From a virus: 64,000 bases of DNA. The stretch covers positions 32,001-96,000 of IMG/VR virus record IMGVR_UViG_3300048838_001106; one strand, written 5' to 3'. Shown here piece by piece: positions 1-16,926 of this stretch. The position numbers and the translations under genes are program-made. How positions within the stretch are numbered: the stretch's first letter is position 1; the number at the start of each line of letters is the position of its first letter. A model generated the notes under the pieces. It was not told the DNA's origin, did no database searches, and saw only the letters and a list, made by a program, of their open reading frames with translations.

Positions 1-1825
1 CTAGCAAACGCTCTGTGCCAGCCACACTGACATCTCGGTCATACGGTGTTACTACGAAGCGCCCATCTGCCGTGAGTGTCCACCCGAGTCCAGCTCCGCT
101 AAACACCTGCGCTTCCCAGTTTCCAGCCGTGAAGTCCAGATCGACTTGAGCTCCCGGCGCAGTGCAAGGGATTGCTAGCGTCTGGACACGACGTTCGCCA
201 TTCAAAGCAATCCCGTCACGCTGGATATCGGAAGCCTCGATCAGATCTTGGAGCGACGCGTGCGGGAGCATCCTATTATACATAGCCAACAAGAGGTCTT
301 CGAGGCTGTCCGACGCGGGATTCAGTTTTGGATAGGCGTCCGGCGTGGTAGAAATCCTTTGTGTGCCCTTGGATAACGCAGTAACCACCACGCCGTCTCT
401 GAGTAAACTAAATTCAGTGTCAATGCCGACTATTGCAGACTGGACACTGTTATTGGCAGGTACCAACACAGAGAGGCCGGACGCGTCCATTCCTACATAT
501 TCAGCGCCATACACACCAAGGTCGTTTTTAACGGGGTTTATTACCAGACCACGATTGATGTCGCTTCTGACGAACACAGCGCCTGCCCAATCCATCTCCG
601 TGAGCGATTCGTCAATTCGGTCTAGCACGTTCGTCAAGTTTTGCGGTTCCGAACCAAGCACTGGCCAGCCGCGTAGGAAAGTCCAGTCGTCAGCATTTAC
701 GCCGATGATGTCAGACCCATGTGTAGCTGCGTTGTACGTGGCGTCCAGAATAGGGAAGTCTGAGTTGCGCAGGGCTGCGCGAAGTGCCTCGCTGTTATTC
801 GAGATCGTAGTCTGTGCCGTGCCAGCATACAATGGCGTTCCCGTGTTCACGAACACGAACCTGTTGTCCACAACACGTCCGAGGTGCACTGCGTTGTGCG
901 TATGCGCACTGTCCGCATCAAAGACCACCAGGCTAGGTGCAGGCACAAGGTGTTTTCCGGTCTCTTCGACGCTTTCCCTTCGCGCCAATGCGCTACTGAA
1001 ACTAATGGCTAGCGTGGAGCCCTCTTTCAACTCCAGACCGGCTGCGAACGCCGCTGCAAGGTTCGACGCGGTAATCTCGTGGAACACACCATCCGAGCCG
1101 CCAGAGAACCACTGTTGTGGTGCCACAAATGCAGCATACCCTGCGTTGGTAACTGCGACATCCACAAGCAGGGAGGCTACCGGGTGTGCGTCGATCGCAG
1201 TCTTGATGGCTCCGAGGGTGTGCGTCGGCTCGGCGGAATCGAACTGGACTGTGACACGGCGCCGCCCTGGTTGAACAGAGGGGTCACTCACTGTAGCGTC
1301 TCCCAACACGTCAACCAGCACAGACCCGATACCGGCCACGTCCTGCGCCTCATAGCTCAGATCATGTGCACCCTCGTACTCGTAAATCTTTGCTGTAAAA
1401 TCTAGCGCCTCAGTACCATCCGTTACCTGGGCTGTGTAAAACCGAGTCGGGAAGCGCGTTCCTGCGCCCTCGTTGGCTGCACCTGTTGGTGTACCCGGAG
1501 TAGTCGACGGTACTATGAGCATCGACTCGCCAGGGGACAGCACAAGTCTGCCCGTGCCTGCTGACGCAACGGTACCTTCCCACAAGACACTGCCTCCAGT
1601 CAGTGAAAACGTAGTGCTCTTGTCATTCTCTTGCAACCACCTGATATCATTGATGCCAATGCGTACCTGCTCAATGCGCTGGCGAAGAACTTCGGTTGGA
1701 CGTTGAAGGGTAGCTTGATCGAGTGTTTCGCCATTCATAATAGGAGCGATTGAACTCGCAGTAGCGTCACCAGTGTCAACGCCAACAGGTGTCGTCTTGA
1801 AGTTAAGATTCTTACTCATTGCCAT
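1..1825 (-). CDS. Virion structural protein, probably tail-fibre/baseplate associated (runs off the window edge)
   Basis: Minus frame starting ATG 1825 (MAMSKNLNFKTTPVGVDTGD...) and still open at base 1 (...ADGRFVVTPYDRDV); probably absent from the ORF track because no stop falls in the window. Follows baseplate genes. Confidence 0.65.
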   Translation of the reverse strand, partial: MAMSKNLNFKTTPVGVDTGDATASSIAPIMNGETLDQATLQRPTEVLRQRIEQVRIGINDIRWLQENDKSTTFSLTGGSVLWEGTVASAGTGRLVLSPGESMLIVPSTTPGTPTGAANEGAGTRFPTRFYTAQVTDGTEALDFTAKIYEYEGAHDLSYEAQDVAGIGSVLVDVLGDATVSDPSVQPGRRRVTVQFDSAEPTHTLGAIKTAIDAHPVASLLVDVAVTNAGYAAFVAPQQWFSGGSDGVFHEITASNLAAAFAAGLELKEGSTLAISFSSALARRESVEETGKHLVPAPSLVVFDADSAHTHNAVHLGRVVDNRFVFVNTGTPLYAGTAQTTISNNSEALRAALRNSDFPILDATYNAATHGSDIIGVNADDWTFLRGWPVLGSEPQNLTNVLDRIDESLTEMDWAGAVFVRSDINRGLVINPVKNDLGVYGAEYVGMDASGLSVLVPANNSVQSAIVGIDTEFSLLRDGVVVTALSKGTQRISTTPDAYPKLNPASDSLEDLLLAMYNRMLPHASLQDLIEASDIQRDGIALNGERRVQTLAIPCTAPGAQVDLDFTAGNWEAQVFSGAGLGWTLTADGRFVVTPYDRDVSVAGTERLL

Positions 1826-7813: not shown

Positions 7814-8269
7814 CTATCTCCTGATAGATCGCGTCGGCAGAATGAATTGAAGAGCCCTGCCCGCCTGATTCTTTAACAAGATGGTTACTTCGAAGCCGGC
7901 GCCGTTGTCGTCTACAACTAACGAGGTCATCTTGGCAGACTGCAATATGTCTTCAGGATCATCGCTTGGGTCCATGCTCTGGTATCTGAATAGTGTAGCT
8001 TCTGCTTTGGATACAGCTGTCGACACAATGTCCTGCAGGTCTTGCGCGGAAGTTACGTTCGACCCTATGAGAGCCGGGAAACGTGTGCCATTAGACCTGT
8101 CAGACAGATCTGTACCCTCTAATGTCATCAGTGTCTTCAGGAACTTGTTGATAAGCTTCTGAAAACCTCTAATGCCTATGTGCTTCTGAAACCCATAGAT
8201 GAACGTGGCATAGCCATCGACTTGCTCAGACGCGGGCTTCAGCTGGATGTATGTGTCAAATGTACTCAT
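7814..8269 (-). CDS. gp25/GpW-like baseplate wedge (sheath initiator) protein
   Basis: IRGFQKLINKFLKTLMTLEGTD...GT pattern; 151 aa; immediately upstream of baseplate J. Confidence 0.7.
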   Translation of the reverse strand: MSTFDTYIQLKPASEQVDGYATFIYGFQKHIGIRGFQKLINKFLKTLMTLEGTDLSDRSNGTRFPALIGSNVTSAQDLQDIVSTAVSKAEATLFRYQSMDPSDDPEDILQSAKMTSLVVDDNGAGFEVTILLKNQAGRALQFILPTRSIRR

Positions 8270-9927
8270 CAGTCACCGAGAGGGGCGTCGCCATATCGAA
8301 CATCATAACTCTTTTCGATACGTTTGCGCACCTCAGGATAATTCAAACTGGCGGTGTCGTACACTTGTTTTCTGGTGACGTTGGCAAGTGCCTCGTCTCT
8401 CATCAGCCCTGAGGTTATATCGTACATGCTTCCAAGCACCGCGTACTGCGACGGAGAGGTAGCGTCCTCTCTGCTCTCAGCCACACTGTTCATGACCTTG
8501 TTTATTGGTGACGTAGGCGACACATACGGGTCAGTTGGCAGAGGAGAATTTACCAGCATGGCAATAGGATCAATGCGGTAGCTGTTCGCGTTGCCAACTG
8601 CTGTCAGCCTGTTTGATTCCAACGGTCTGCCCTGAATGAGCTGTCGCTGTACCAGTATTTCAAAGTGGAGGTGCGGCGTTCGCACAGAGTTGTGCGGAAG
8701 AACTTTGCCGCCGGACTTTCGCCCCTGCGTAATGCCTGCCAGACCGATTGGTTGTGCCCGTGTAACACGATCCCCTGTCTTTACAAAGAACTTGGACATG
8801 TGAGCATAGCGCGAGCTGAACCCGTTATTGTGGTCAATGTAAACCACGAGGCCGTAAGACTCGCTGACGTCTGCCCGCACCACCACCCCGTCAGCTATTG
8901 CGTACACAGGCTGGTTGGGGTTGTTCTGCGTCAGGAAGTCCACGCCCTTGTGCAAACGCACACGCTGTTGTCCTGTGACGGGGTCAATGCCAAGACGCTC
9001 AGCCCCAGCATTCCCTGTAGACACTGCCTTCGTGCGGCGCTTCTGGAAAGGACTCAGCACCTGAATCGTTGTGAGAGGCCATACAAGTCCCAGTGCCTTG
9101 TTGTCATCGACTGACAGGGTAAAAGTTTTTACGCTGTCATCGTTCAGAATATAGTCGATGATCCGCGTGGACGCGGCGTTGGCTTCGTTAACTCTGAGAC
9201 CATCAAACGTCGCTTCATACCGTGTCGTAAACGCCTGAATGTCAATCTGGATTTTCTTAGTGCGCGCAGCACTGACGCGTCTTACTTCAACGGCGGCTTC
9301 TGCGCCAACCTCTCCGCCCTGCACTCCCCACACAGAGAAGTCACCAGCAGACCTGTTGCACAACGGCAGTCTGTATGCAGAGGGCGGTGTGTTGACAGCG
9401 CCGGACGGCAGCGTCTGCGCAACAGACACAAACTGCTCTGCGTTGTTAGACCACTTAGACATGTTCGCGCGCATGCGTTGCATGTACGTGAACACCGCGC
9501 CATTCCCCCACACCGTGTTCAGATACTCGTCCGCTGCCGCATCGCCATCGCCGATGAGTTTGATGTCTAAGTACGTCGCAACTACGTCGTCCCTTGTCCC
9601 CCATAGAAGAGCCATAGCTTCGTAGTTGTAACCGTGTATCTCGGCGTAGCTCTCCATGTATTGCAGGAAAGCCGTGACGGCCTCAGATGGTTTGCCGACA
9701 TAATCTACAGGCTTGCTGTTGTTAACCAGCGCTGCCTTGCGCTCGTCGATACCGAACAGTCCCGCAGATGTGTTGTTGTTGACCGAAAAATCTGGGTCAA
9801 GACCTGACTGATAGTCTGCAACTGCAAGAACAAACCAATCAGGATACAGGTACTCTGTAAGCCCTGTGTCCTCCCTGACTTTTGGAAGAATGACGGTCCG
9901 CAGTTGTGTTTCAATTTCGGACGCCAT
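8269..9927 (-). CDS. Tail-associated peptidoglycan hydrolase: lytic-transglycosylase-like N-terminus plus M23 peptidase
   Basis: M23 motifs HKGVDF (HxxxD), YAHM and PHLHFEI (HxH); N-terminal AVADYQSG...SAGLFGI resembles SLT motifs I/II. Confidence 0.85.
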   Translation of the reverse strand: MASEIETQLRTVILPKVREDTGLTEYLYPDWFVLAVADYQSGLDPDFSVNNNTSAGLFGIDERKAALVNNSKPVDYVGKPSEAVTAFLQYMESYAEIHGYNYEAMALLWGTRDDVVATYLDIKLIGDGDAAADEYLNTVWGNGAVFTYMQRMRANMSKWSNNAEQFVSVAQTLPSGAVNTPPSAYRLPLCNRSAGDFSVWGVQGGEVGAEAAVEVRRVSAARTKKIQIDIQAFTTRYEATFDGLRVNEANAASTRIIDYILNDDSVKTFTLSVDDNKALGLVWPLTTIQVLSPFQKRRTKAVSTGNAGAERLGIDPVTGQQRVRLHKGVDFLTQNNPNQPVYAIADGVVVRADVSESYGLVVYIDHNNGFSSRYAHMSKFFVKTGDRVTRAQPIGLAGITQGRKSGGKVLPHNSVRTPHLHFEILVQRQLIQGRPLESNRLTAVGNANSYRIDPIAMLVNSPLPTDPYVSPTSPINKVMNSVAESREDATSPSQYAVLGSMYDITSGLMRDEALANVTRKQVYDTASLNYPEVRKRIEKSYDVRYGDAPLGD

Positions 9928-9936
9928 GATGTGTCA

Positions 9937-10413
9937 TTAGCCGCGTGCTTGGTTGTACAAAGCGCGGAGCTTGGACTCAGTATCGAAGTCCGTACCAAGA
10001 TACTGGTTCGACGCATTTCGAAGATCGTTCTGCCACGTGTCGGCGTCAGTCATTCCATAGCCTAGACCCACAGCACCCGCGCCTGCTGCGCCTACGCCGG
10101 CTGCGCCTTGCGCTCCCTGCATGATTTGTTTCCGCAAATGAGCCTCTGCCGGGTCTCCGATAACTTCGAACGCACCGTCCATCGCTGGCTGCATATTCCG
10201 GAGCGCTTTGACATTCTGCGGCAGGTCCATCATCGCCTGCATCCTGCCAGCAGTCTTTGTCTGCTGTGCAGACTCCACCACAAGCTGTGCCATCTTCATG
10301 AGTGCTGGGTGGCCAGACGACGCGGCGTGATTGACGAAGTCAACAGGGTCAACATTGTGCTCTGCGAGCTTTGTCATAATGCCGTGAACGTATGCTGTTT
10401 TCTGTGTGCTCAT
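9937..10413 (-). CDS. Leader-bearing glycine-zipper protein (GTDF family)
   Basis: Likely start MSTQKTAYVHG; GAAGVGAAGAGAVGLG then YGMTDADT...NDLRNASNQYLGTDF. Confidence 0.75.
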   Translation of the reverse strand: MSTQKTAYVHGIMTKLAEHNVDPVDFVNHAASSGHPALMKMAQLVVESAQQTKTAGRMQAMMDLPQNVKALRNMQPAMDGAFEVIGDPAEAHLRKQIMQGAQGAAGVGAAGAGAVGLGYGMTDADTWQNDLRNASNQYLGTDFDTESKLRALYNQARG

Positions 10414-10438
10414 TTTATATCTTCCTTTCAAGTGGTGG

Positions 10439-10882
10439 TTAACTGACCAGATTTCCAAACCGTGATTTCGTGCTAAAGTCTGTGCCTAGCATTCTATTAG
10501 ACGCCCGAACTGCCCTGTTCTCCATAGTGTTTGCGTCTCCCATACCGTATGCAAGGCCTCCCACACCAAGTGCTGTGCCCCCGAGACGCTTAGCGCCTTT
10601 TCCAGCTTGGCTACGAAGAACATCCGAGCGCTCGGTAGCCCTGTCTGCTGCTCGTGTGTTTCCGGTTGCTCTGTTGTCCAATGCCCTTTCTGTGTGGATT
10701 TTTGACTTCTTCCAGTCTCCATGAATGCGGCGCGGGTCCATCGACTTCACAAAGTCTACGCCTTTATCGACAAGCTTCCCTGCCTGTGTACCAAGGTTGG
10801 CAACCTTCTCTGTGGTCTCAATGTCAAGCCCTGAGCATGACAGGACATGTAACATACCGATACTATAAAAATCATTGCTCAT
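10439..10882 (-). CDS. Leader-bearing glycine-zipper protein (GTDF family)
   Basis: YSIGMLHVLSCSGL...EKVA leader; C-terminal YGMGDANT...ASNRMLGTDF. Confidence 0.75.
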   Translation of the reverse strand: MSNDFYSIGMLHVLSCSGLDIETTEKVANLGTQAGKLVDKGVDFVKSMDPRRIHGDWKKSKIHTERALDNRATGNTRAADRATERSDVLRSQAGKGAKRLGGTALGVGGLAYGMGDANTMENRAVRASNRMLGTDFSTKSRFGNLVS

Positions 10883-10937
10883 GTCTGCCTCTTGATCCCT
10901 TTGTTATCTTTATCATAAACCTGGTTACGGCGTAAAG

Positions 10938-12155
10938 TTACCATTGTATTGACGCGCCGAATCCTCTGGAATTGCTTGTGTCGTACATGCTCTTGCCTGC
11001 CAGTCCTGCGCCGAGCCCCGCTGCGGCTAGGCCTGCAATGCGCGCGGCGCGTCCTCCGGTGTTGATCTTGCGCAACACATCGTCGCGAGTCAACACGGGG
11101 TCAATCAATCCTGTGTACTGCTTAGCCCAGTCTTGGTACGTCGGCTTCATTTTCACGCTTGCAGCTTCTAAAATTGGGTCTCCGCTACCGCCGCGGCGTA
11201 AGGGTGCGCCGTCTTCCAAGATCTCGTTCAACCATGCGCGCCTGTCAGATGCGGGCATTTTATTGACATCCGGCTCACCATAATGAAGTGCGCGTTCTTC
11301 AACAAATTGTGTGATTTTTCTTTCTGCATAGTCCCCAAGACTGTCAGTGGTGTACAAAGGTGTCTTCCTGTACAAGTCGTCTTGAATGTGCCCGGCGTCG
11401 TCCCCCCTAATTGCAGCTCTCAGATGCGCAACGTATTGTTCTGGGTCTGCGCTCTCCATATGCCTATCGGCGCGCCCGAGCGCGAAACTGAGGTGTGGAT
11501 TGTCAACCGAGTCGCGCATGATTCTTCGAAACTCTTTGCCGTCCACAGGCATGCTGTCTACATCCGTGCCCTCTGGCAACGTTGCGGCCATCTGCCTTGC
11601 AGTTTCGTATCTTCTTCGTAAAAAATCCTTTCTGAAATCTTCTGGGTCTGCGCCCTCTGTTTCCCGAAACATATGCTTTGCTGCTTGAAGAGGCCCCTCT
11701 GAGAAATTTTTGTAGTGCTCTTCGCTAGCGGAGTCGAATGGCTGCAGCAGTCCAGCGCTCTGCAAAAGCGGAGACAATTTCCCTGTCCGGACCTTCTTAA
11801 CTAATTCTTGTCCCGTGATTGTGCTGCCGTCTCGCAGCGGCATTTTCTGATTAAGCAGGTCAGAACTCATGTCGGCGTACTCGCCTAAGGACATGCCTGA
11901 TCCTGTCAGTCGCTTGTATTCCCTCAACTTATCTGCAGTGTCATCGGCCAGGATTGACCCCTTCGTGTAATTCACGGCTCGATGTCCTGCTACTCCCGCG
12001 CCAAGTCCTGCACCTGCACCTGCCACTCCTAAATACATCTCAGGCTGATCTGCCAGATTCTCTCTCTGAGAACCAAAAGACACATTGAAAGCAGTTTTAG
12101 TGCGGCGCAGCCCCGCTGCGTGCAATGTCTGGCTGTATCCAGCGTTATAAAACAT
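10938..12155 (-). CDS. Leader-bearing protein with glycine zippers near both ends
   Basis: YNAGYSQTLHAAGL...TKTA leader; GVAGAGAGLGAGVAG near the N-terminus and AGLAAAGLGAGLAG near the C-terminus. Confidence 0.75.
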   Translation of the reverse strand: MFYNAGYSQTLHAAGLRRTKTAFNVSFGSQRENLADQPEMYLGVAGAGAGLGAGVAGHRAVNYTKGSILADDTADKLREYKRLTGSGMSLGEYADMSSDLLNQKMPLRDGSTITGQELVKKVRTGKLSPLLQSAGLLQPFDSASEEHYKNFSEGPLQAAKHMFRETEGADPEDFRKDFLRRRYETARQMAATLPEGTDVDSMPVDGKEFRRIMRDSVDNPHLSFALGRADRHMESADPEQYVAHLRAAIRGDDAGHIQDDLYRKTPLYTTDSLGDYAERKITQFVEERALHYGEPDVNKMPASDRRAWLNEILEDGAPLRRGGSGDPILEAASVKMKPTYQDWAKQYTGLIDPVLTRDDVLRKINTGGRAARIAGLAAAGLGAGLAGKSMYDTSNSRGFGASIQW

Positions 12156-12176
12156 GGCTTACTCCGTAAACAAAGA

Positions 12177-12947
12177 TCACCCGCCAAATGCGTTGCTGAA
12201 GCGAGACTGCGTTTTGAAGTCGGTGCCGAGATTCTTGTTGGCAGCCTGTCGAATCTTGTTGCCAGTCGTGTCGGCGTCGCCCATGCCGTATGCTGTAGCG
12301 CCCGCAGCTCCGAGGCCTGCTGTGCCCGCTCCTCCAATTATTGCGCCCTGTACGCCACGTCTTGCGCGGCCTTCTGTCTCCAGAGCCCGTAGAAGTTCGA
12401 AGTGCACCGCATTGTTTTGAAAATTGTCGGTGATCCCCGACAGCTCAGACGCTTCTCGGAAGCTTGGGTGGTGTAGATCTACGTTGTACCTGTTTCCCTG
12501 CTCATTGAGAGTCCTCTCAGCTCCGAACCCGTAACTCGATGGCTCTTGGCGTTTTCTTGAAATGAAGTCGTCATCTAGTCTACGTAGGTTCGATGGCGCA
12601 TTCCATATGTCGCTTAGCCACTCGCCAGGGCCGCCGCCCATGCTACGCCTTAGTGCGTAATCCATGGGTTCCACGCCGGGTATCATATCGCCTATCTCGC
12701 GTGCCGTTGCGTAAGGGTCGCTTAGTCTTTTTAGACCTCCCATCACTGTGTGTGCGCCAAAAAGGCCGTCCAATGGTACGCGTGCATTCACTTCTTTTTG
12801 TATGCTGGGTGCGTCAAAAAGATCGCCTACAGCACCTCCGGCTCCACGTATTGCCGCCGATGCCTGTTTGCTGTCTGACACCATGTTCAGATCTAACAGC
12901 CCCGCCGCACTAGCAACCTTCGCTAGCCCAAATGTGTAAGCGTCCAT
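12177..12947 (-). CDS. Leader-bearing glycine-zipper protein (GTDF family)
   Basis: YTFGLAKVASAAGL...KQA leader; C-terminal YGMGDADT...AANKNLGTDF; AGGAG SD upstream. Confidence 0.75.
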   Translation of the reverse strand: MDAYTFGLAKVASAAGLLDLNMVSDSKQASAAIRGAGGAVGDLFDAPSIQKEVNARVPLDGLFGAHTVMGGLKRLSDPYATAREIGDMIPGVEPMDYALRRSMGGGPGEWLSDIWNAPSNLRRLDDDFISRKRQEPSSYGFGAERTLNEQGNRYNVDLHHPSFREASELSGITDNFQNNAVHFELLRALETEGRARRGVQGAIIGGAGTAGLGAAGATAYGMGDADTTGNKIRQAANKNLGTDFKTQSRFSNAFGG

Positions 12948-12958
12948 CCTAAACTCCT

Positions 12959-14857
12959 TCAGTCCATAATCTCTGAAACTTTGTCGATAATCCGTCGCTT
13001 TCTATACGAAAGCTGTCCCTGCGTCAGGCCCGTCTTCGCTGCGAGCTGTGGATTGCTCAAGATAGGCTTTCCGGAATAGCCTGTCGAGTGTTCAAAGATG
13101 AGTTTGTCGATTGGGTCCATGTCGAAGTATAGCATGTCCACCAGGCCGTCGTCGGAATCTGAGCCCCACACACTCTTTCGCTCGAACAACCCTGCTCCTG
13201 TATCGAGCGACTCAATCAACTCTGGCCTCATTGAGCGCTGCACATCGGCGACCATCTTGCGAGACCACCCTAAGTGATCTGCCAGCTCGACGTCCGTCGG
13301 CTCACGGCCGTTCAGACTCATCAACTCTTCGGTGCTTCTGTGATACGCATTGAACTTGAGCTTCTTGTACTCCGGCACACGCACAGCGTCTTGATGTGTG
13401 TAGACCTCGCGACTGATCTTCTTGAGCCTGTTTGTGACATGCGTTGCCAGCGCTGCGCCGGCGTTTGGGTTGTACGATTTGATGGCTTCGAGAGCCAGGC
13501 CTTTCGCTTTTGTCTCCAGGACAGGCCTGGAGATTGCGCCTGCCCATCGATTGACCTCGGACTGAATAACCGGATCAAGCTGCTGCATCAGAGGCTGAAG
13601 TGTGTGTGGGCCGGGGTTCGCTTTGTAGGCCTCCCACAGTTCGATGTCGCGGGTTTTTACGCTGGATCTTTTATGCATGCCTGTTGTTACTAAGTTCTCT
13701 AGCTCTAGCATGTCACCTCCAGGTAACGGCTTCCACCTGCGGCTCAATGCGGGTCTTAGTGCGTGATCTGTGACAATCTTCTCATAAGTAGGTGAGTTGT
13801 TAACTCTTCGCGCAGGGGAGTATCCACTATTCTGATGCCGTATGTGGTCTATACCTTCGGGCACGATGTCCCCTTCTTCGTAATGGCGTTGCCACGCGCT
13901 CTGATCTTTTTTAGGGATCTTTCGAGTGTCGTACTCAAACACGCGGCTTGTACCGTCGCGGTGTCTTTCCCAGGCAGTTCCTGGGATATGAGACGCCGCG
14001 GCGTACTCCATGGCCACTTCAGGATGTGCAGTTGTCCATCGCAAGTCGTCCGGCGCCGAAAACCTACTTCGCGGGTTGTGCGTTGTACCGTGGTATGCAG
14101 CGCTGCTCGGGGCGTAACCCTCTCCCATAATTGGTTGACCGTCTCTGGTTACTGTATTGGGAGACATCACTTTTTTATTGGGATGTCCGGCCAGTGTCTT
14201 AGCTCTAGCCGACGGTGTCTCGTCCATACGTCTCTTTAGCGTCACCGCGTCGTTCATGCTCCACGCAGACTGTTCTCGCAATGCGTTAAACTCTTCAATT
14301 TTAGCTTTGTTTACGGGGTCGTCAAAGTACTTGCTCTTTATCCTGGGGGTCATGTGGTCAACTAGCGGTGCTTCGGTCTGAGGTATGCCCAAGTGTGTTT
14401 GGAGCGTGCGTTTAAGTTTTCCAGCAGCGCCAAGTGCTGATGACAACAGAGTCGGCGGTGATGCAGTGTGTGGTATGTTTGCTTCTTGTGCCGCCAATGC
14501 GTCGAAGAAGATTCGGTTATACTGGTTTCGGATTTCGGTATTAAACCGGTCTAAGTCTTCTCGAGACACGACACGAACTTCTCTGCGCGGCACCACACCT
14601 CGCTTTAACGCTTCTTCGCGCATACGTGCTGCAGGGAAGTACTCAGGAGATAATTTCTCTGCGTAATCCACAAGTGCGGCCGCTGTGTTGCTTGGAACGC
14701 CGGTCCAGTCATTTGTGCGCATTGCATTCATTAAAGTGTCGGCAGTCACGTCGCTAGGAATAGCCCCAGCACCCTGAAGTTTTTGGATCATCTTGGTGCT
14801 GATTGCGGTCTTTTCCATACCAGGTGGTGGGCCGACCGTCTTATTCTGCATCGTCAT
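12959..14857 (-). CDS. ADP-ribosyltransferase-like domain fused to a sigma-70-family sigma factor
   Basis: aa ~400-632: region 2 (LALEAIKSYNPNAGAALATHV), VRVPE, region 3 (GREPTDVELADHLG), region 4 HTH (LSNPQLAAKTGLTQGQLS). aa ~253-375: YHGT...WTTAHPEVAMEYA...VFEY...TYE, ART-like. Confidence 0.8.
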   Translation of the reverse strand: MTMQNKTVGPPPGMEKTAISTKMIQKLQGAGAIPSDVTADTLMNAMRTNDWTGVPSNTAAALVDYAEKLSPEYFPAARMREEALKRGVVPRREVRVVSREDLDRFNTEIRNQYNRIFFDALAAQEANIPHTASPPTLLSSALGAAGKLKRTLQTHLGIPQTEAPLVDHMTPRIKSKYFDDPVNKAKIEEFNALREQSAWSMNDAVTLKRRMDETPSARAKTLAGHPNKKVMSPNTVTRDGQPIMGEGYAPSSAAYHGTTHNPRSRFSAPDDLRWTTAHPEVAMEYAAASHIPGTAWERHRDGTSRVFEYDTRKIPKKDQSAWQRHYEEGDIVPEGIDHIRHQNSGYSPARRVNNSPTYEKIVTDHALRPALSRRWKPLPGGDMLELENLVTTGMHKRSSVKTRDIELWEAYKANPGPHTLQPLMQQLDPVIQSEVNRWAGAISRPVLETKAKGLALEAIKSYNPNAGAALATHVTNRLKKISREVYTHQDAVRVPEYKKLKFNAYHRSTEELMSLNGREPTDVELADHLGWSRKMVADVQRSMRPELIESLDTGAGLFERKSVWGSDSDDGLVDMLYFDMDPIDKLIFEHSTGYSGKPILSNPQLAAKTGLTQGQLSYRKRRIIDKVSEIMD

Positions 14858-14865
14858 ACGTCTCC

Positions 14866-15639
14866 TTACATCCCTTCTCGAACTGTGTTCGCCGCGTCTA
14901 CTGCAAGTCCACCAGCTAGCATCGCACTTAATGCCCCTCCTGCAAATCGACCTGGGTGCTTGCGAAGATACGTCCCCATGTCACCCAGAGACTCTCTCAG
15001 CACGCTGTGTTCTTTGTTGCCTACGCCGCCTCGAATGTACTTGGGGTCGACGGGAAATTCCGACGTGGCAGCTACGGTATGCTTACTGGCTTCCCACCCT
15101 GATGGCGTGTCTTGACCCATAAGAAAGTCAGGGTCGTGACTAAACCTGTCAGCGAACTGCGTGTACGGCATGTCTATGGTGACTGTGCGGGGGTGTCCAA
15201 AGAGTAATTCTTTAGCTTTGCCACGTGCCAGTCTAGCTTCCACTCCGTCAAGGTCGGTTCCTGCCAATGCGTTTAATTCATCCTCATTCATCACCGAAAA
15301 CGTGTTCGCAATAACCGACTGTGGCGTAACGTGAATCTTGTTTTTGCTGTTTTCGACGAAGTTTCCGTCGATGAACGATGCTCCTGTTCCGCCGTACTCA
15401 GGGCGCAGCCCTTCCCGAAGGATTGACTTGTGAGCATCATCAGACGCCGTACCGTGATACAGACGCTGCTGATTAGTCAAGCGGCTGTACGCGCCTGGTG
15501 CCAGCGCGCCAGCTATGCCTACCTGGGCAGCCGCGCCTGCGTAGTCGCCTACGCCCGGCTTATCCGGTTGTTCCAGGCCCAGGCTTTCCATGATGCCTGC
15601 TGTTTTGATGATGAGGTTGTAGCCATCGGTGTAGTTCAT
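14866..15639 (-). CDS. Leader-bearing ADP-ribosyltransferase-fold protein (H-G-T type)
   Basis: RLYHGT...SILREGLRP...IHVT...VDPKYI resembles Tpt1/KptA/PARP-like ART folds; YTDGYNLIIKTAGI leader; flanked by Gly/Ala hydrophobic segments. Confidence 0.7.
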   Translation of the reverse strand: MNYTDGYNLIIKTAGIMESLGLEQPDKPGVGDYAGAAAQVGIAGALAPGAYSRLTNQQRLYHGTASDDAHKSILREGLRPEYGGTGASFIDGNFVENSKNKIHVTPQSVIANTFSVMNEDELNALAGTDLDGVEARLARGKAKELLFGHPRTVTIDMPYTQFADRFSHDPDFLMGQDTPSGWEASKHTVAATSEFPVDPKYIRGGVGNKEHSVLRESLGDMGTYLRKHPGRFAGGALSAMLAGGLAVDAANTVREGM

Positions 15640-15642
15640 AAT

Positions 15643-16653
15643 TTACTTCTGCGTTACAGGCTTCATTGCGTAGCCAACTTGGTCTCCGTCACGTGCGCGG
15701 CGAACGGTGTACTCTGCGACGGGCTCAGGGATCATGCTGGGCGTTACCATGGTCTCATAAGTTGGGTGTCTTCGGCCGGCGATGACGTCGGATCTAGTCC
15801 TGGGATGCCACTTGCCGTCTTGTAATGGAGTCTCAGGTCTATTCACCAACTTGCCGTCCGCAAACCATTGGCGGCTGTACTCACCGGTTGGGTCGGAAAT
15901 GCGATTTGTTCTGAGCTGGTTTAGGTCCTCTGCGCGCGCGTTTATGTATTCTTGCGGCCCAATTCCTTGCCAATCTGCAGATGCCTCGGGGATAGGGCTG
16001 CCTAGTACTGGATCTTGTTTGAAGTCTGACTTTCTGTAGGCAAACATTCGGTTCGTATGTGGGCTATACCCACCCAGAGCAGCGTCACCGCTGGCGTACC
16101 CCGCTGCAACTTCGGGATGCCTGGACATATAAAACAGCTCTTTCTCTGAAGCCACATCTACTGGGTTGCCTCGATATAATATGTCGCCCGGCGCGTCTGA
16201 GTTTTTTCGAATGAACTCGGCATTGCCAGCAGATGGTACGAACGACTCACCTGGTTTTGGTGCGTGAGCTCCACTAAACCGCCGGTCAAGAGCTTGGCGT
16301 GCTGTGGCCTGTTGCAGTGTACTACTACTACGCGTTCTCAACACGTCTCGGTACGCATGGTGCGGAATCGTTAGTCTTGCTGGAGGACTATTATCATGGA
16401 ATATGCGCGCCCATGCAGGACCGAGTGATTTTTCGATTTCCGCGGTTCCTAGCAACGCATTTGAAAAAGCGTTTTGTCCCTCATGACCGGGTACAAAAGC
16501 ATTGATATTCCGGTTCGGTCCTTGAAACGATTTAGCGTATTCTGGATATTGCTCAGATAGACGCTTGTATAGTTCGCGCATCGGGCGATTCATCGCCACC
16601 TTTTCCACCAACGCTACACCTTCCCAGTATGCACTGCTCATGCTCGTACTCAC
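15643..16653 (-). CDS. Leader-bearing ADP-ribosyltransferase-fold protein (R-S-E-like)
   Basis: ILYRG...FYMSRHPEVAAGYA...RMFAY...PTYE; shares HPEVAxxYA and PTYE with the 12959 protein. Confidence 0.6.
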   Translation of the reverse strand: MSTSMSSAYWEGVALVEKVAMNRPMRELYKRLSEQYPEYAKSFQGPNRNINAFVPGHEGQNAFSNALLGTAEIEKSLGPAWARIFHDNSPPARLTIPHHAYRDVLRTRSSSTLQQATARQALDRRFSGAHAPKPGESFVPSAGNAEFIRKNSDAPGDILYRGNPVDVASEKELFYMSRHPEVAAGYASGDAALGGYSPHTNRMFAYRKSDFKQDPVLGSPIPEASADWQGIGPQEYINARAEDLNQLRTNRISDPTGEYSRQWFADGKLVNRPETPLQDGKWHPRTRSDVIAGRRHPTYETMVTPSMIPEPVAEYTVRRARDGDQVGYAMKPVTQK

Positions 16654-16671
16654 ATCCCGTTATTAAAAGAT

Positions 16672-16926
16672 CTACATCATCCATCGTCTGTAATTCGACT
16701 CATTTTCGAGGTCCGTTCCAAGTGCGTCGTTCGAAATATTTCGAAGATCGTTAGCTACCGTTCTAGCGTCATTCCACGGGGCGAAGCCGCCGGTGTCTAG
16801 TAGAATACCTGTTGTTCCCACTGCACCTAGAGCGGATGCGGCATGTAGATGGGACAATTCTGGCAGCTTCGTCATCAACCCCGCAACCTTCATTGCGCGC
16901 CGATATCCCATCTCGTAGCTATTCAT
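16672..16926 (-). CDS. Minimal leader + hydrophobic helix + GTD[FL]-motif protein
   Basis: YEMGYRRAMKVAGL leader; DART...NDLRNISNDALGTDL. Confidence 0.7.
   Translation of the reverse strand: MNSYEMGYRRAMKVAGLMTKLPELSHLHAASALGAVGTTGILLDTGGFAPWNDARTVANDLRNISNDALGTDLENESNYRRWMM

Follow-up and report, generated by a model that had tools for sequence, protein, structure and literature searches.

Results

The fusion gene and its reading frame

We examined a 64,000-nucleotide stretch (the window) of the IMG/VR virus record IMGVR_UViG_3300048838_001106, comprising bases 32001-96000 of a 156,269-bp sequence that is estimated to be 95% complete. The source is an Arash-like phage of ~156 kb. A nucleotide search of phage records gave zero matches. 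The minus strand of the window encodes a 632-amino acid protein in which a helical region and a domain with a probable ADP-ribosyltransferase (ART) fold precede what is almost certainly a sigma-70-family factor. The open reading frame (ORF) and its parts are as follows.

12959..14857, minus strand: whole fusion ORF (P0001), 632 amino acids; stop codon at 12959-12961; a single frame with zero internal stops
14862..14867, minus strand: Shine-Dalgarno sequence AAGGAG, 5 nt before the ATG at 14857, overlapping the TAA of the upstream gene
14804..14857, minus strand: N-terminal 18 amino acids ending in E-K-T-A, the only K-x-A of the protein; putative propeptide or trimming site
14153..14803, minus strand: helical region, amino acids 19-235; ~20-70 conserved with stand-alone ART-like relatives, the rest variable
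13682..14140, minus strand: ART-fold-like domain, amino acids 240-392; candidate active site Y255-H256 (strand 1), W274-T-T-A-H-P279 (strand 2 and helix) and E359 (strand 5)
13649..13681, minus strand: junction G-M-H-K-R-S-S-V-K-T-R, amino acids 393-403; lacks K-x-A and matches the short N-terminal leader of stand-alone sigmas
12962..13648, minus strand: sigma-70-family module, amino acids 404-632; region 2-like at ~410-500, region 3 at 503-544 (Pfam), region 4 helix-turn-helix (HTH) at ~598-622

A preliminary description, made from the letters of the DNA, had reported a 632-amino acid ORF at 12959-14857 and singled out several strings within it. The ORF is present, and every string was recovered: GMEKTA (amino acids 13-18), YHGT (255-258), WTTAHPEVAMEYA (274-286), RVFEY (305-309), PTYE (356-359) and GMHKRS (393-398).

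There is little doubt that the fusion is a genuine in-frame single ORF and not an artefact. Two adjacent genes could in principle have been joined by a 1-nt indel during sequencing or assembly: an out-of-frame TAGTAA lies at 13692-13687, 12-17 nt upstream of Met394, loss of one A in GAGAAC would bring it into frame, and this fusion occurs on a single contig. We nevertheless regard such an artefact as very remote. Met394, which lies within GMHKRS, is preceded only by 'acagg', not a good Shine-Dalgarno sequence, whereas GGAG-like sites precede most non-overlapping genes of the fusion operon. Moreover, the ORF opens with the same 9 nt (ATGACGATG) as the closest stand-alone sigma gene (L054), and splitting the ORF would strip the sigma body of this native start. 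Finally, six other extended sigmas are found on independent contigs, including a NUDIX form on 15 contigs (JGI, ENA, Logan). Internal initiation at Met394 within an intact ORF is also unlikely, given the missing Shine-Dalgarno sequence and the fact that this Met is not conserved at the junctions of relatives.

The sigma-70-family module

Searches with the whole protein matched PHROG 351, 'RNA polymerase sigma factor' (E 6e-7, amino acids 456-631, the only part with a PHROG match), Pfam Sigma70_r3 (E 9.5e-5), the NCBIfam FliA/RpoD/SigBFG models (E 1e-5 to 1e-4) and RpoS chains (E 2e-4). These signals are individually weak. Firmer evidence came from the isolated module, which scored 25.3 bits against Sigma70_r3, equal to the model cut-off, and from a profile built from eight relatives of the module, aligning at positions 27-174 with solved SigA, RpoD and RpoS chains (E 3.7e-10 to 1e-6) and spanning SigF (1l0o_C) from end to end (profile 12-237, chain 12-242, E 3.8e-7). 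The SigA/RpoS/RpoD matches, together with Sigma70_r3, place region 2 before region 3, as in a canonical sigma. The Pfam Sigma70_r2 and Sigma70_r4 models did not match the fusion ORF, which marks the module as divergent, and the HTH matches at amino acids 598-622 are weak. Taken together, the sequence comparisons identify the C-terminal part as a sigma-70-family factor with near certainty, as the preliminary description had proposed. A second sigma-70-family gene was not detected in the genome.

The N-terminal module and its ART-like domain

An exhaustive HMMER search of amino acids 1-400 against 1.84 billion representatives yielded only six relatives, of 292-474 amino acids, and an IMG/VR scan added one more (L009). 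A profile word-index search added no ART-like relatives, and a metagenome scan returned only the contig of a known member. The resulting family of eight sequences is confined to phage-like contigs. One member, P0007, is a stand-alone paralogue in the same genome, ~52 kb from the fusion (G000 ~98.1-99.5 kb; 40% identity over amino acids 248-388, E 2.4e-17). The stand-alone relatives share a plan of an N-terminal leader, a variable helical middle and a ~150-amino acid C-terminal domain. Conserved across the family are a Tyr/Phe-Arg pair; the sequence W-x-[TS]-[AGS]-H-P-[DE] followed by a helix; an invariant Asp; and a strand Y/H/R-E-[KVRM]-[VI] with an invariant Glu. W274, P279, D310 and E359 of the fusion correspond to residues that are invariant in the family, and amino acids 327-355 form a variable loop.

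An AlphaFold model of amino acids 240-395, built on a 7-sequence alignment, has a pLDDT of 66 and a pTM of 0.67, with the candidate active-site strands all in confident parts; the active-site assignment is drawn from this model and not from a solved structure. When the model was compared with 48,161 chains by VIA-align, the top 50 matches were almost all members of the ART superfamily, led by TreX and KptA/Tpt1 (both Z 5.7), PltA (5.3), diphtheria toxin (5.0) and LT (4.7). The same 50 include Arr, pertussis S1, PARPs, scabin, DarT, RES, CARDS, exotoxin A and the ART-like part of a cyanophage pre-ejectosome protein. The matched ranges for LT (model 14..156, chain 4..148) would put H256 opposite the catalytic Arg7 if the start of the alignment is ungapped. 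Foldseek returned the same families (best E 0.06), and a BFVD search gave weak, mostly unnamed matches. The structural matches agree with one another, but their scores are too low to rule out a merely shared arrangement of elements. In the preceding helical region, amino acids 21-70 are predicted to be helical with a pLDDT of ~77-81; the remainder of amino acids 19-235 was modeled with low confidence.

Based on this modeling, amino acids 240-392 probably adopt an ART fold, a judgement held back by the low scores, the shallow alignment and the poor model obtained for amino acids 1-400. The ART-like segment of the preliminary description is thereby upheld at the level of fold, with moderate confidence, but not as a match to any Pfam, NCBIfam or PADLOC family.

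Whether the domain would act as an enzyme is a separate matter. Seven of the eight family members have Y/F-R at the strand-1 position and the paralogue P0007 keeps the Arg, whereas the fusion alone has Y255-H256 (codon CAC). This substitution, along with the missing ART family match, a weak alternative match to the Sf6 small terminase (E 0.09) and the poor 400-residue model, would fit a pseudo-enzyme or a non-ART domain with a regulatory, docking or auto-inhibitory role, akin to sigma region 1.1 or an anti-sigma factor. However, His occupies the same position in the H-Y-E and H-Y-D branches of the ART superfamily, as described for the ARTs of polyvalent proteins (PMC5512222); the four invariant residues named above are retained; and the fold matches are uniformly ART. 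We therefore consider a pseudo-enzyme or non-ART head rather unlikely, although catalytic activity is itself a doubtful prospect.

Related sigma factors with other N-terminal domains

Our first homologue search was limited to proteins of 347-1106 amino acids and found five proteins whose sigma parts are 67-73% identical and whose N-terminal heads are quite different. These include NUDIX heads (E 1.9e-14 and 6.8e-12), a kinase/APH-like head in P0002 (E 7e-4) and a GNAT-like head with weak Pfam matches (E 0.02-0.06), in which the stretch Q-G-M-G-L-G-K-K can be read as a GNAT acetyl-CoA-binding motif. P0005 (L013 2959-5067, 702 amino acids) consists of a GNAT-like head, a ~245-amino acid Gly-rich insert and the sigma; the insert has a copy of the junction motif, K-[TQ]-S-S-A-R-K-D-K-D-I-E, on either side and looks like a cassette inserted by recombination at the leader.

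The impression that all close relatives are fused proved to be an artefact of the length limits. In a later search that admitted shorter proteins, stand-alone sigmas of 234-270 amino acids made up most of the close relatives (56-77% identity), and 9/32 of these sigmas have a short leader that includes K-x-A. Two apparent long fusions, L025 (2561-4723, 720 amino acids) and L028 (1151-4699, 1182 amino acids), were rejected as stop-free frames in high-GC DNA with Arg-rich nonsense translations; the real sigmas of these two loci start ~20-30 amino acids before the conserved body.

In a maximum-likelihood tree of 38 sigma bodies, the extended state requires at least five changes. The fusion protein is sister to the stand-alone P0017 and the kinase-like fusion to the stand-alone P0019; one NUDIX fusion lies among stand-alone sigmas, and GNAT and NUDIX heads occur together in one well-supported clade. 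Thus, N-terminal capture at this sigma gene has happened often and independently, and sigma function does not require the head. The fusion noted in the preliminary description is accordingly not a one-off: it is one case of a recurrent pattern.

Genomic setting and the phage RNA polymerase

On the minus strand, the fusion gene is preceded by genes for proteins of 1234, 307, 174 and 724 amino acids and by three small genes. It is followed by four small genes and an M23 peptidase, then by a 151-amino acid protein, a Baseplate_J-like protein of 808 amino acids and a 983-amino acid protein. We refer to the small genes, which carry the leader described below, as cargo genes. The relevant features are as follows.

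14866..16926, minus strand: three upstream cargo genes, 257, 336 and 84 amino acids, with the leader Y..GY..hhK.AG or a variant
9937..12947, minus strand: four downstream cargo genes, 256, 405, 147 and 173 amino acids, leader-bearing
8269..9927, minus strand: M23 peptidase, 552 amino acids, E 5.6e-25; conserved in relatives, where it anchors the downstream side of the sigma/cargo region
G000:C1 ~150.6-153.0 kb, minus strand: RNA polymerase beta (Rpb2_6, E 5.5e-56) and beta' catalytic region (Rpb1_2, E 3.7e-20) in one 1630-amino acid frame

None of the nine neighbours of the fusion gene that were scanned against PHROGs gave a match. The leader consensus of the flanking small genes, in some cases in variant form, is Y/F-x-x-G-[YFM]-x-x-h-h-K-x-A-G-[LI]. 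As a regular expression it occurs 12 times in the genome, as opposed to 0.44 times in shuffled proteins, and nearly all copies lie at residues 3-6 of an ORF. The copies fall in two clusters, at 10439-16926 and at 63647-69675 of the window, the latter running past the window end (G000 95.6-101.7 kb) and containing both P0007 and a 365-amino acid relative of the P0002 kinase-like head (tblastn E 1.8e-5). Relatives carry the same leader arrays beside their sigma (L005, L013, L054). The genes that share the leader are otherwise unrelated, and many of their bodies are Gly/Ala-rich. The leader may serve as a signal for virion targeting or as a propeptide. In the fusion its generic part is missing and only G-M-E-K-T-A remains.

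Several other features of these arrays were observed. A second leader class, YA.GF.TKLAE..(V/I)SP..F......P.(L/F).K.A, is found in the 173-amino acid ORF at 9937-10458 if it begins at an internal Met, and, in the closest relative, in six genes arrayed in tandem after its sigma (L054 8842-12451). Four cargo proteins (12177-12947, 10439-10882, 9937-10458 and 16672-16926) share a C-terminal tail of ~35 amino acids that contains N..LGTD(F/L).(T/N).S, and the tail recurs in several L054 genes. The 257-amino acid gene just upstream of the fusion (14866-15639, minus strand) encodes an L-Y-H-G-T motif and has a faint match to the RNA 2'-phosphotransferase KptA/Tpt1 (NCBIfam E 0.05, amino acids 55-80); by sequence, its product may be a second ART-superfamily cargo protein. 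Upstream of the sigma in the NUDIX-sigma phage (L003/L005 7621-8805), the array includes a 394-amino acid protein of the 2',5' RNA ligase/2H (LigT-like) phosphoesterase family. The combination of a 2H phosphoesterase with NUDIX and ART-like heads hints at a theme of NAD/ADP-ribose or RNA ends.

The sigma and five of its neighbours match gp6, 8, 10, 12, 13 and 14 of Salmonella phage Arash in the same order, within a tail/baseplate module, and all six Arash proteins were found by virion mass spectrometry (PMC10585845). This synteny, together with the M23 peptidase and the Baseplate_J-like protein downstream, supports the structural operon of the preliminary description. Arash virions yielded 467 spectra and 24 unique peptides of the sigma, Gp10, at 100% coverage, and the RNA polymerase beta and beta' subunits were among the most abundant virion species (PMC10585845).

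Polymerase genes also occur in relatives: RNA polymerase beta is present in the records of 5/5 relatives tested, in comparable frames of 1465-1600 amino acids. A survey of jumbo phages described their polymerase-encoding group as lacking sigma (PMC7824862), which makes the pairing of sigma and polymerase unusual here. The preliminary description had the sigma redirecting RNA polymerase. Because the phage encodes its own beta/beta', as do the five relatives tested, the sigma may serve the phage enzyme instead of redirecting that of the host, and we consider a partnership with the phage polymerase, and not with the host core, somewhat more likely than not on the basis of this co-occurrence.

The K-x-A motif and virion packaging

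The K-x-A tripeptide is distributed unevenly among the proteins of this phage. By block, observed/expected ratios are 0.93-1.08 for non-structural proteins, 0.46 for tail/baseplate, 0.38 for the second cargo array and 1.88 for head/polymerase. Four head-module proteins of 223, 266, 368 and 835 amino acids contain 10, 11, 9 and 9 copies, respectively, compared with ~2 expected in each, typically in the form E-K-T-A-A. Counted as K-x-A-[AS], there are 5-11 copies, again compared with ~2 expected, in each of the 223-, 266-, 368-, 835- and 121-amino acid head-module proteins, which are encoded outside the window (G000:C1 135187-146939). These repeats look like the cleavage code of a maturation protease on scaffold or core proteins. 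K-x-S is near-absent from the head proteins, with one instance, in the fifth protein examined.

Cargo proteins show the opposite pattern. Each of the twelve (12/12) has a K-x-A at residues 10-27, and their bodies, defined as the sequence after residue 30, contain 3 copies compared with 16.8 expected (Poisson 5e-5). The fusion follows suit, with its sole copy at residues 16-18 and none in the body, where 3.4 would be expected. Similarly, there are 4 copies compared with 15.2 expected in the bodies of the six fused sigmas, and 20 compared with 43.8 expected in those of 32 close stand-alone sigmas, which are related, non-independent sequences. The simplest reading of this pattern is that a maturation protease would cut at K-x-A and that virion proteins would have been purged of internal sites.

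Virion delivery of the fusion is plausible because Arash Gp10 is found in virions, because the gene sits in arrays of leader-bearing cargo and because its K-x-A pattern is virion-like; we somewhat favour incorporation of the fusion protein into virions. The alternative is an ordinary sigma, produced once infection is under way to serve middle or late genes, whose head acts in cis on the bound polymerase and whose location among virion genes reflects co-expression only. In its favour, T4 gp55 and SPO1 gp28/gp34 are examples of phage sigmas that work post-infection, the generic cargo leader is gone from the N-terminal module, the Arash virion list seems too inclusive, and distant stand-alone sigmas show no K-x-A depletion (49 observed, 40.4 expected). 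Against this, the 467 spectra for the 234 residues of Arash Gp10 exceed, per residue, those of the baseplate proteins; the sigma bodies of the close clade are depleted of K-x-A as virion proteins are, with the caveat on relatedness already given; and the gene keeps its position in cargo arrays beside the M23 peptidase. An unpackaged sigma thus appears unlikely.

The junction and possible processing

The preliminary description heard in GMHKRS an echo of GMEKTA and suggested a packaged polyprotein. The echo is literal (G-M-x-K), but the motif that recurs in this genome is K-x-A, which is present at the N-terminal site (K16-T-A18), whereas the junction reads K-R-S. With no K-x-A at the junction, the case for a cut at GMHKRS is weakened and the protein would, on this reading, lose ~18 residues and otherwise stay whole. 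That the mature form keeps both halves joined is about as likely as not.

Cleavage by a head-maturation protease at or near GMHKRS, freeing an ART-like enzyme and a sigma, would have some parallels. The junction matches the short leader of 9/32 close stand-alone sigmas, which is often K-x-A-[AS] (FKLAAS, DKEAAP, VKEAST); the duplicated junction motif of P0005 stands on both sides of the inserted module; and the Bacillus factors pro-sigma-E and pro-sigma-K are activated by N-terminal cleavage. In the kinase-like relative P0002, K-T-A-A falls precisely on the junction, and fusions may thus not all be processed alike. However, the junction is K-R-S here and K-T-S in four relatives, K-x-S is near-absent from the very head proteins in which K-x-A abounds, and the K-x-A cleavage specificity is itself putative. 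We consider a processed polyprotein improbable.

Discussion

Proposed origin and function

The explanation that we put forward has even prospects as a whole: a packaged, N-terminally trimmed but intact ART-like-sigma fusion that is delivered with the DNA and tethers its head at the polymerase. The start shared with the L054 sigma gene (ATGACGATG) suggests in-frame insertion of a module behind the sigma's own start. The sigma gene would have kept that start (MTM...) and gained a module of ~390 amino acids, comprising an E-K-T-A leader remnant, the helical region and the ART-fold domain, a copy taken from among the leader-bearing cargo genes that the phage already carries, of which the paralogue P0007 would be an example. 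The fusion protein would be made together with the virion genes, packaged along with the phage-encoded beta/beta' RNA polymerase, trimmed only at the N-terminal K-x-A site so that it stays in one piece, and delivered with the DNA. The sigma part would then steer a polymerase, most likely the phage's own, to phage promoters, and the ART-like head would thereby be held at the transcription complex. There it might use NAD to modify a nearby target (the polymerase, RNA 5' ends or a defence factor) or, given the Arg-to-His change, merely bind one. That the protein is packaged, trimmed at its N terminus and otherwise left intact is inferred from the patterns described above, as are its polymerase partner and the function of its ART head.

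In this scheme the sigma would be a chassis for interchangeable early effectors, its slot on sister sigmas having been taken, in separate events, by NUDIX (twice), GNAT-like and kinase-like domains. More speculatively, a clade of phages might package a bacterial-type holoenzyme including sigma-70, with the sigma as delivery chassis: interchangeable enzymes for host takeover or against defences would be grafted time and again behind its start codon, would lose their own leader and would be carried by the sigma into the virion and then into the next host, with a K-x-A code deciding what is trimmed and what remains joined. T7 uses a free kinase, gp0.7, against host polymerase or RNA. The T4 ARTs Alt and ModA and the phiKMV acetyltransferase Rac are further phage enzymes directed against host polymerase or RNA (PMC7824862). 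Since the heads belong to classes that other phages use free against these targets, tethering of an early effector to the transcription complex is, by analogy, the most economical functional idea that we infer; an anti-defence role in NAD/ADP-ribose metabolism is possible.

Several observations weigh against this explanation. The exact fusion was found on one contig only, and ~80% of close relatives have a plain sigma, making the head dispensable for sigma function. Amino acids 1-400 gave zero family matches in Pfam, NCBIfam and PADLOC, with the Pfam and NCBIfam ART models silent at E up to 1. A profile of the ART-like domain found no ART among PDB sequences, its best match being the Sf6 small terminase N-domain (E 0.09), which we regard as a coincidence or, at best, as a weak rival. 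Matches at the level of fold are weak (Z at most 5.7, Foldseek E 0.06) and come from one model on a 7-sequence alignment; a second AlphaFold model, of amino acids 1-400, leaves the domain unconfident (pLDDT 46.6) and was not used for fold calls. The Arg of the family, at the position presumed to bind NAD, is replaced by His in the fusion alone. The case for K-x-A as a protease site is purely statistical, and the fusion's own depletion is not significant (P about 0.10). Tail/baseplate proteins are depleted too, which ties depletion to virion proteins generally and not to a location in the capsid interior. Finally, the Arash sigma is only ~30% identical and has no K-x-A leader, and the Arash virion list, at 116 proteins that include ribonucleotide reductases and a kinase, may be over-inclusive (PMC10585845).

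If the explanation is true, a virion-borne sigma that works with a phage-encoded polymerase and time and again captures varied enzymes at a single site would represent a novel means of directing effectors to the earliest transcription complexes of an infection. The ART, GNAT, kinase and NUDIX heads represent classes that T4, phiKMV and T7 use free against host polymerase or RNA, and comparing them on one chassis could show the benefit of tethering. The leaders and the K-x-A pattern may represent the virion-targeting signal and the protease specificity of a group of phages that has received little study, and they could help to recognize packaged proteins by their sequence.

Comparison with known systems

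Our full-text literature search found no description of a sigma-ART or sigma-NUDIX fusion, in keeping with the preliminary description, whose author knew of no described example.

Phage sigma factors are textbook post-infection regulators. In Bacillus, pro-sigma-E and pro-sigma-K are, like the fusion, made with an N-terminal extension; theirs is non-enzymatic, 20-29 amino acids long and removed by dedicated membrane proteases. The extension of the fusion, by contrast, is ~400 amino acids long and has an enzyme-like fold, and its cleavage at the junction is doubtful.

T4 Alt is a virion-packaged, N-terminally processed ART that modifies host RNA polymerase. The fusion resembles it as an ART-fold phage protein with a probable N-terminal processing site, a virion-gene setting and a plausible early action on the transcription machinery. 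The likeness to Alt drawn in the preliminary description does not extend further: there is no detectable sequence relationship, the fusion has His for the conserved Arg of its family, Alt is not joined to a sigma and T4 lacks its own polymerase. Vis (rank 39) is the only Alt/VIP2-type toxin among the leading fold matches, which do not include VIP2, C3 or iota.

Arash Gp10 is an orthologous sigma (~30% identity, E 3e-21) at the same place in a syntenic tail/baseplate module of a phage with its own multisubunit polymerase (PMC10585845). Unlike the fusion, Gp10 is a 234-amino acid protein with neither an N-terminal head nor a K-x-A leader. The phiKZ/AR9-type virion polymerases (PMC7598289, PMC7824862) are similar in that a bacterial-type phage polymerase is encoded among virion genes and presumably injected for early transcription. 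In those phages beta and beta' are split and there is no sigma-70-family factor (PMC7824862), whereas here beta and the N-terminal part of beta' share one frame and the sigma is canonical-looking.

In concept, the polyvalent proteins of phages and conjugative elements come closest; one of them, in Roseovarius Plymouth podovirus 1, joins an ART to an N4-like virion RNA polymerase (Iyer et al. 2017, PMC5512222). Like them, the fusion is a multi-domain product of a gene among virion genes, with at least two unrelated domains (ART-like and sigma) in one phage virion-block polypeptide; it combines a probable ART fold with a transcription protein that would enter with the DNA; and its family has a modular, shuffled architecture with GNAT and NUDIX domains that are also in the polyvalent repertoire. 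It differs in having two domains and not a giant array; in the ART relatives of its head, which are Arg/Ser-Thr/Glu-like, unlike the H-Y-D Tox-ART-HYD2 clade; and in its sigma-70-family module, since sigma is not in the repertoire of PMC5512222. The fusion thus resembles known injected multi-domain phage effectors, and what is new is the sigma as recurrent constant partner. The interest of this gene family lies mainly there, in its pairing of a sigma with a phage polymerase in a virion setting, and in the signals given by the leaders and by K-x-A.

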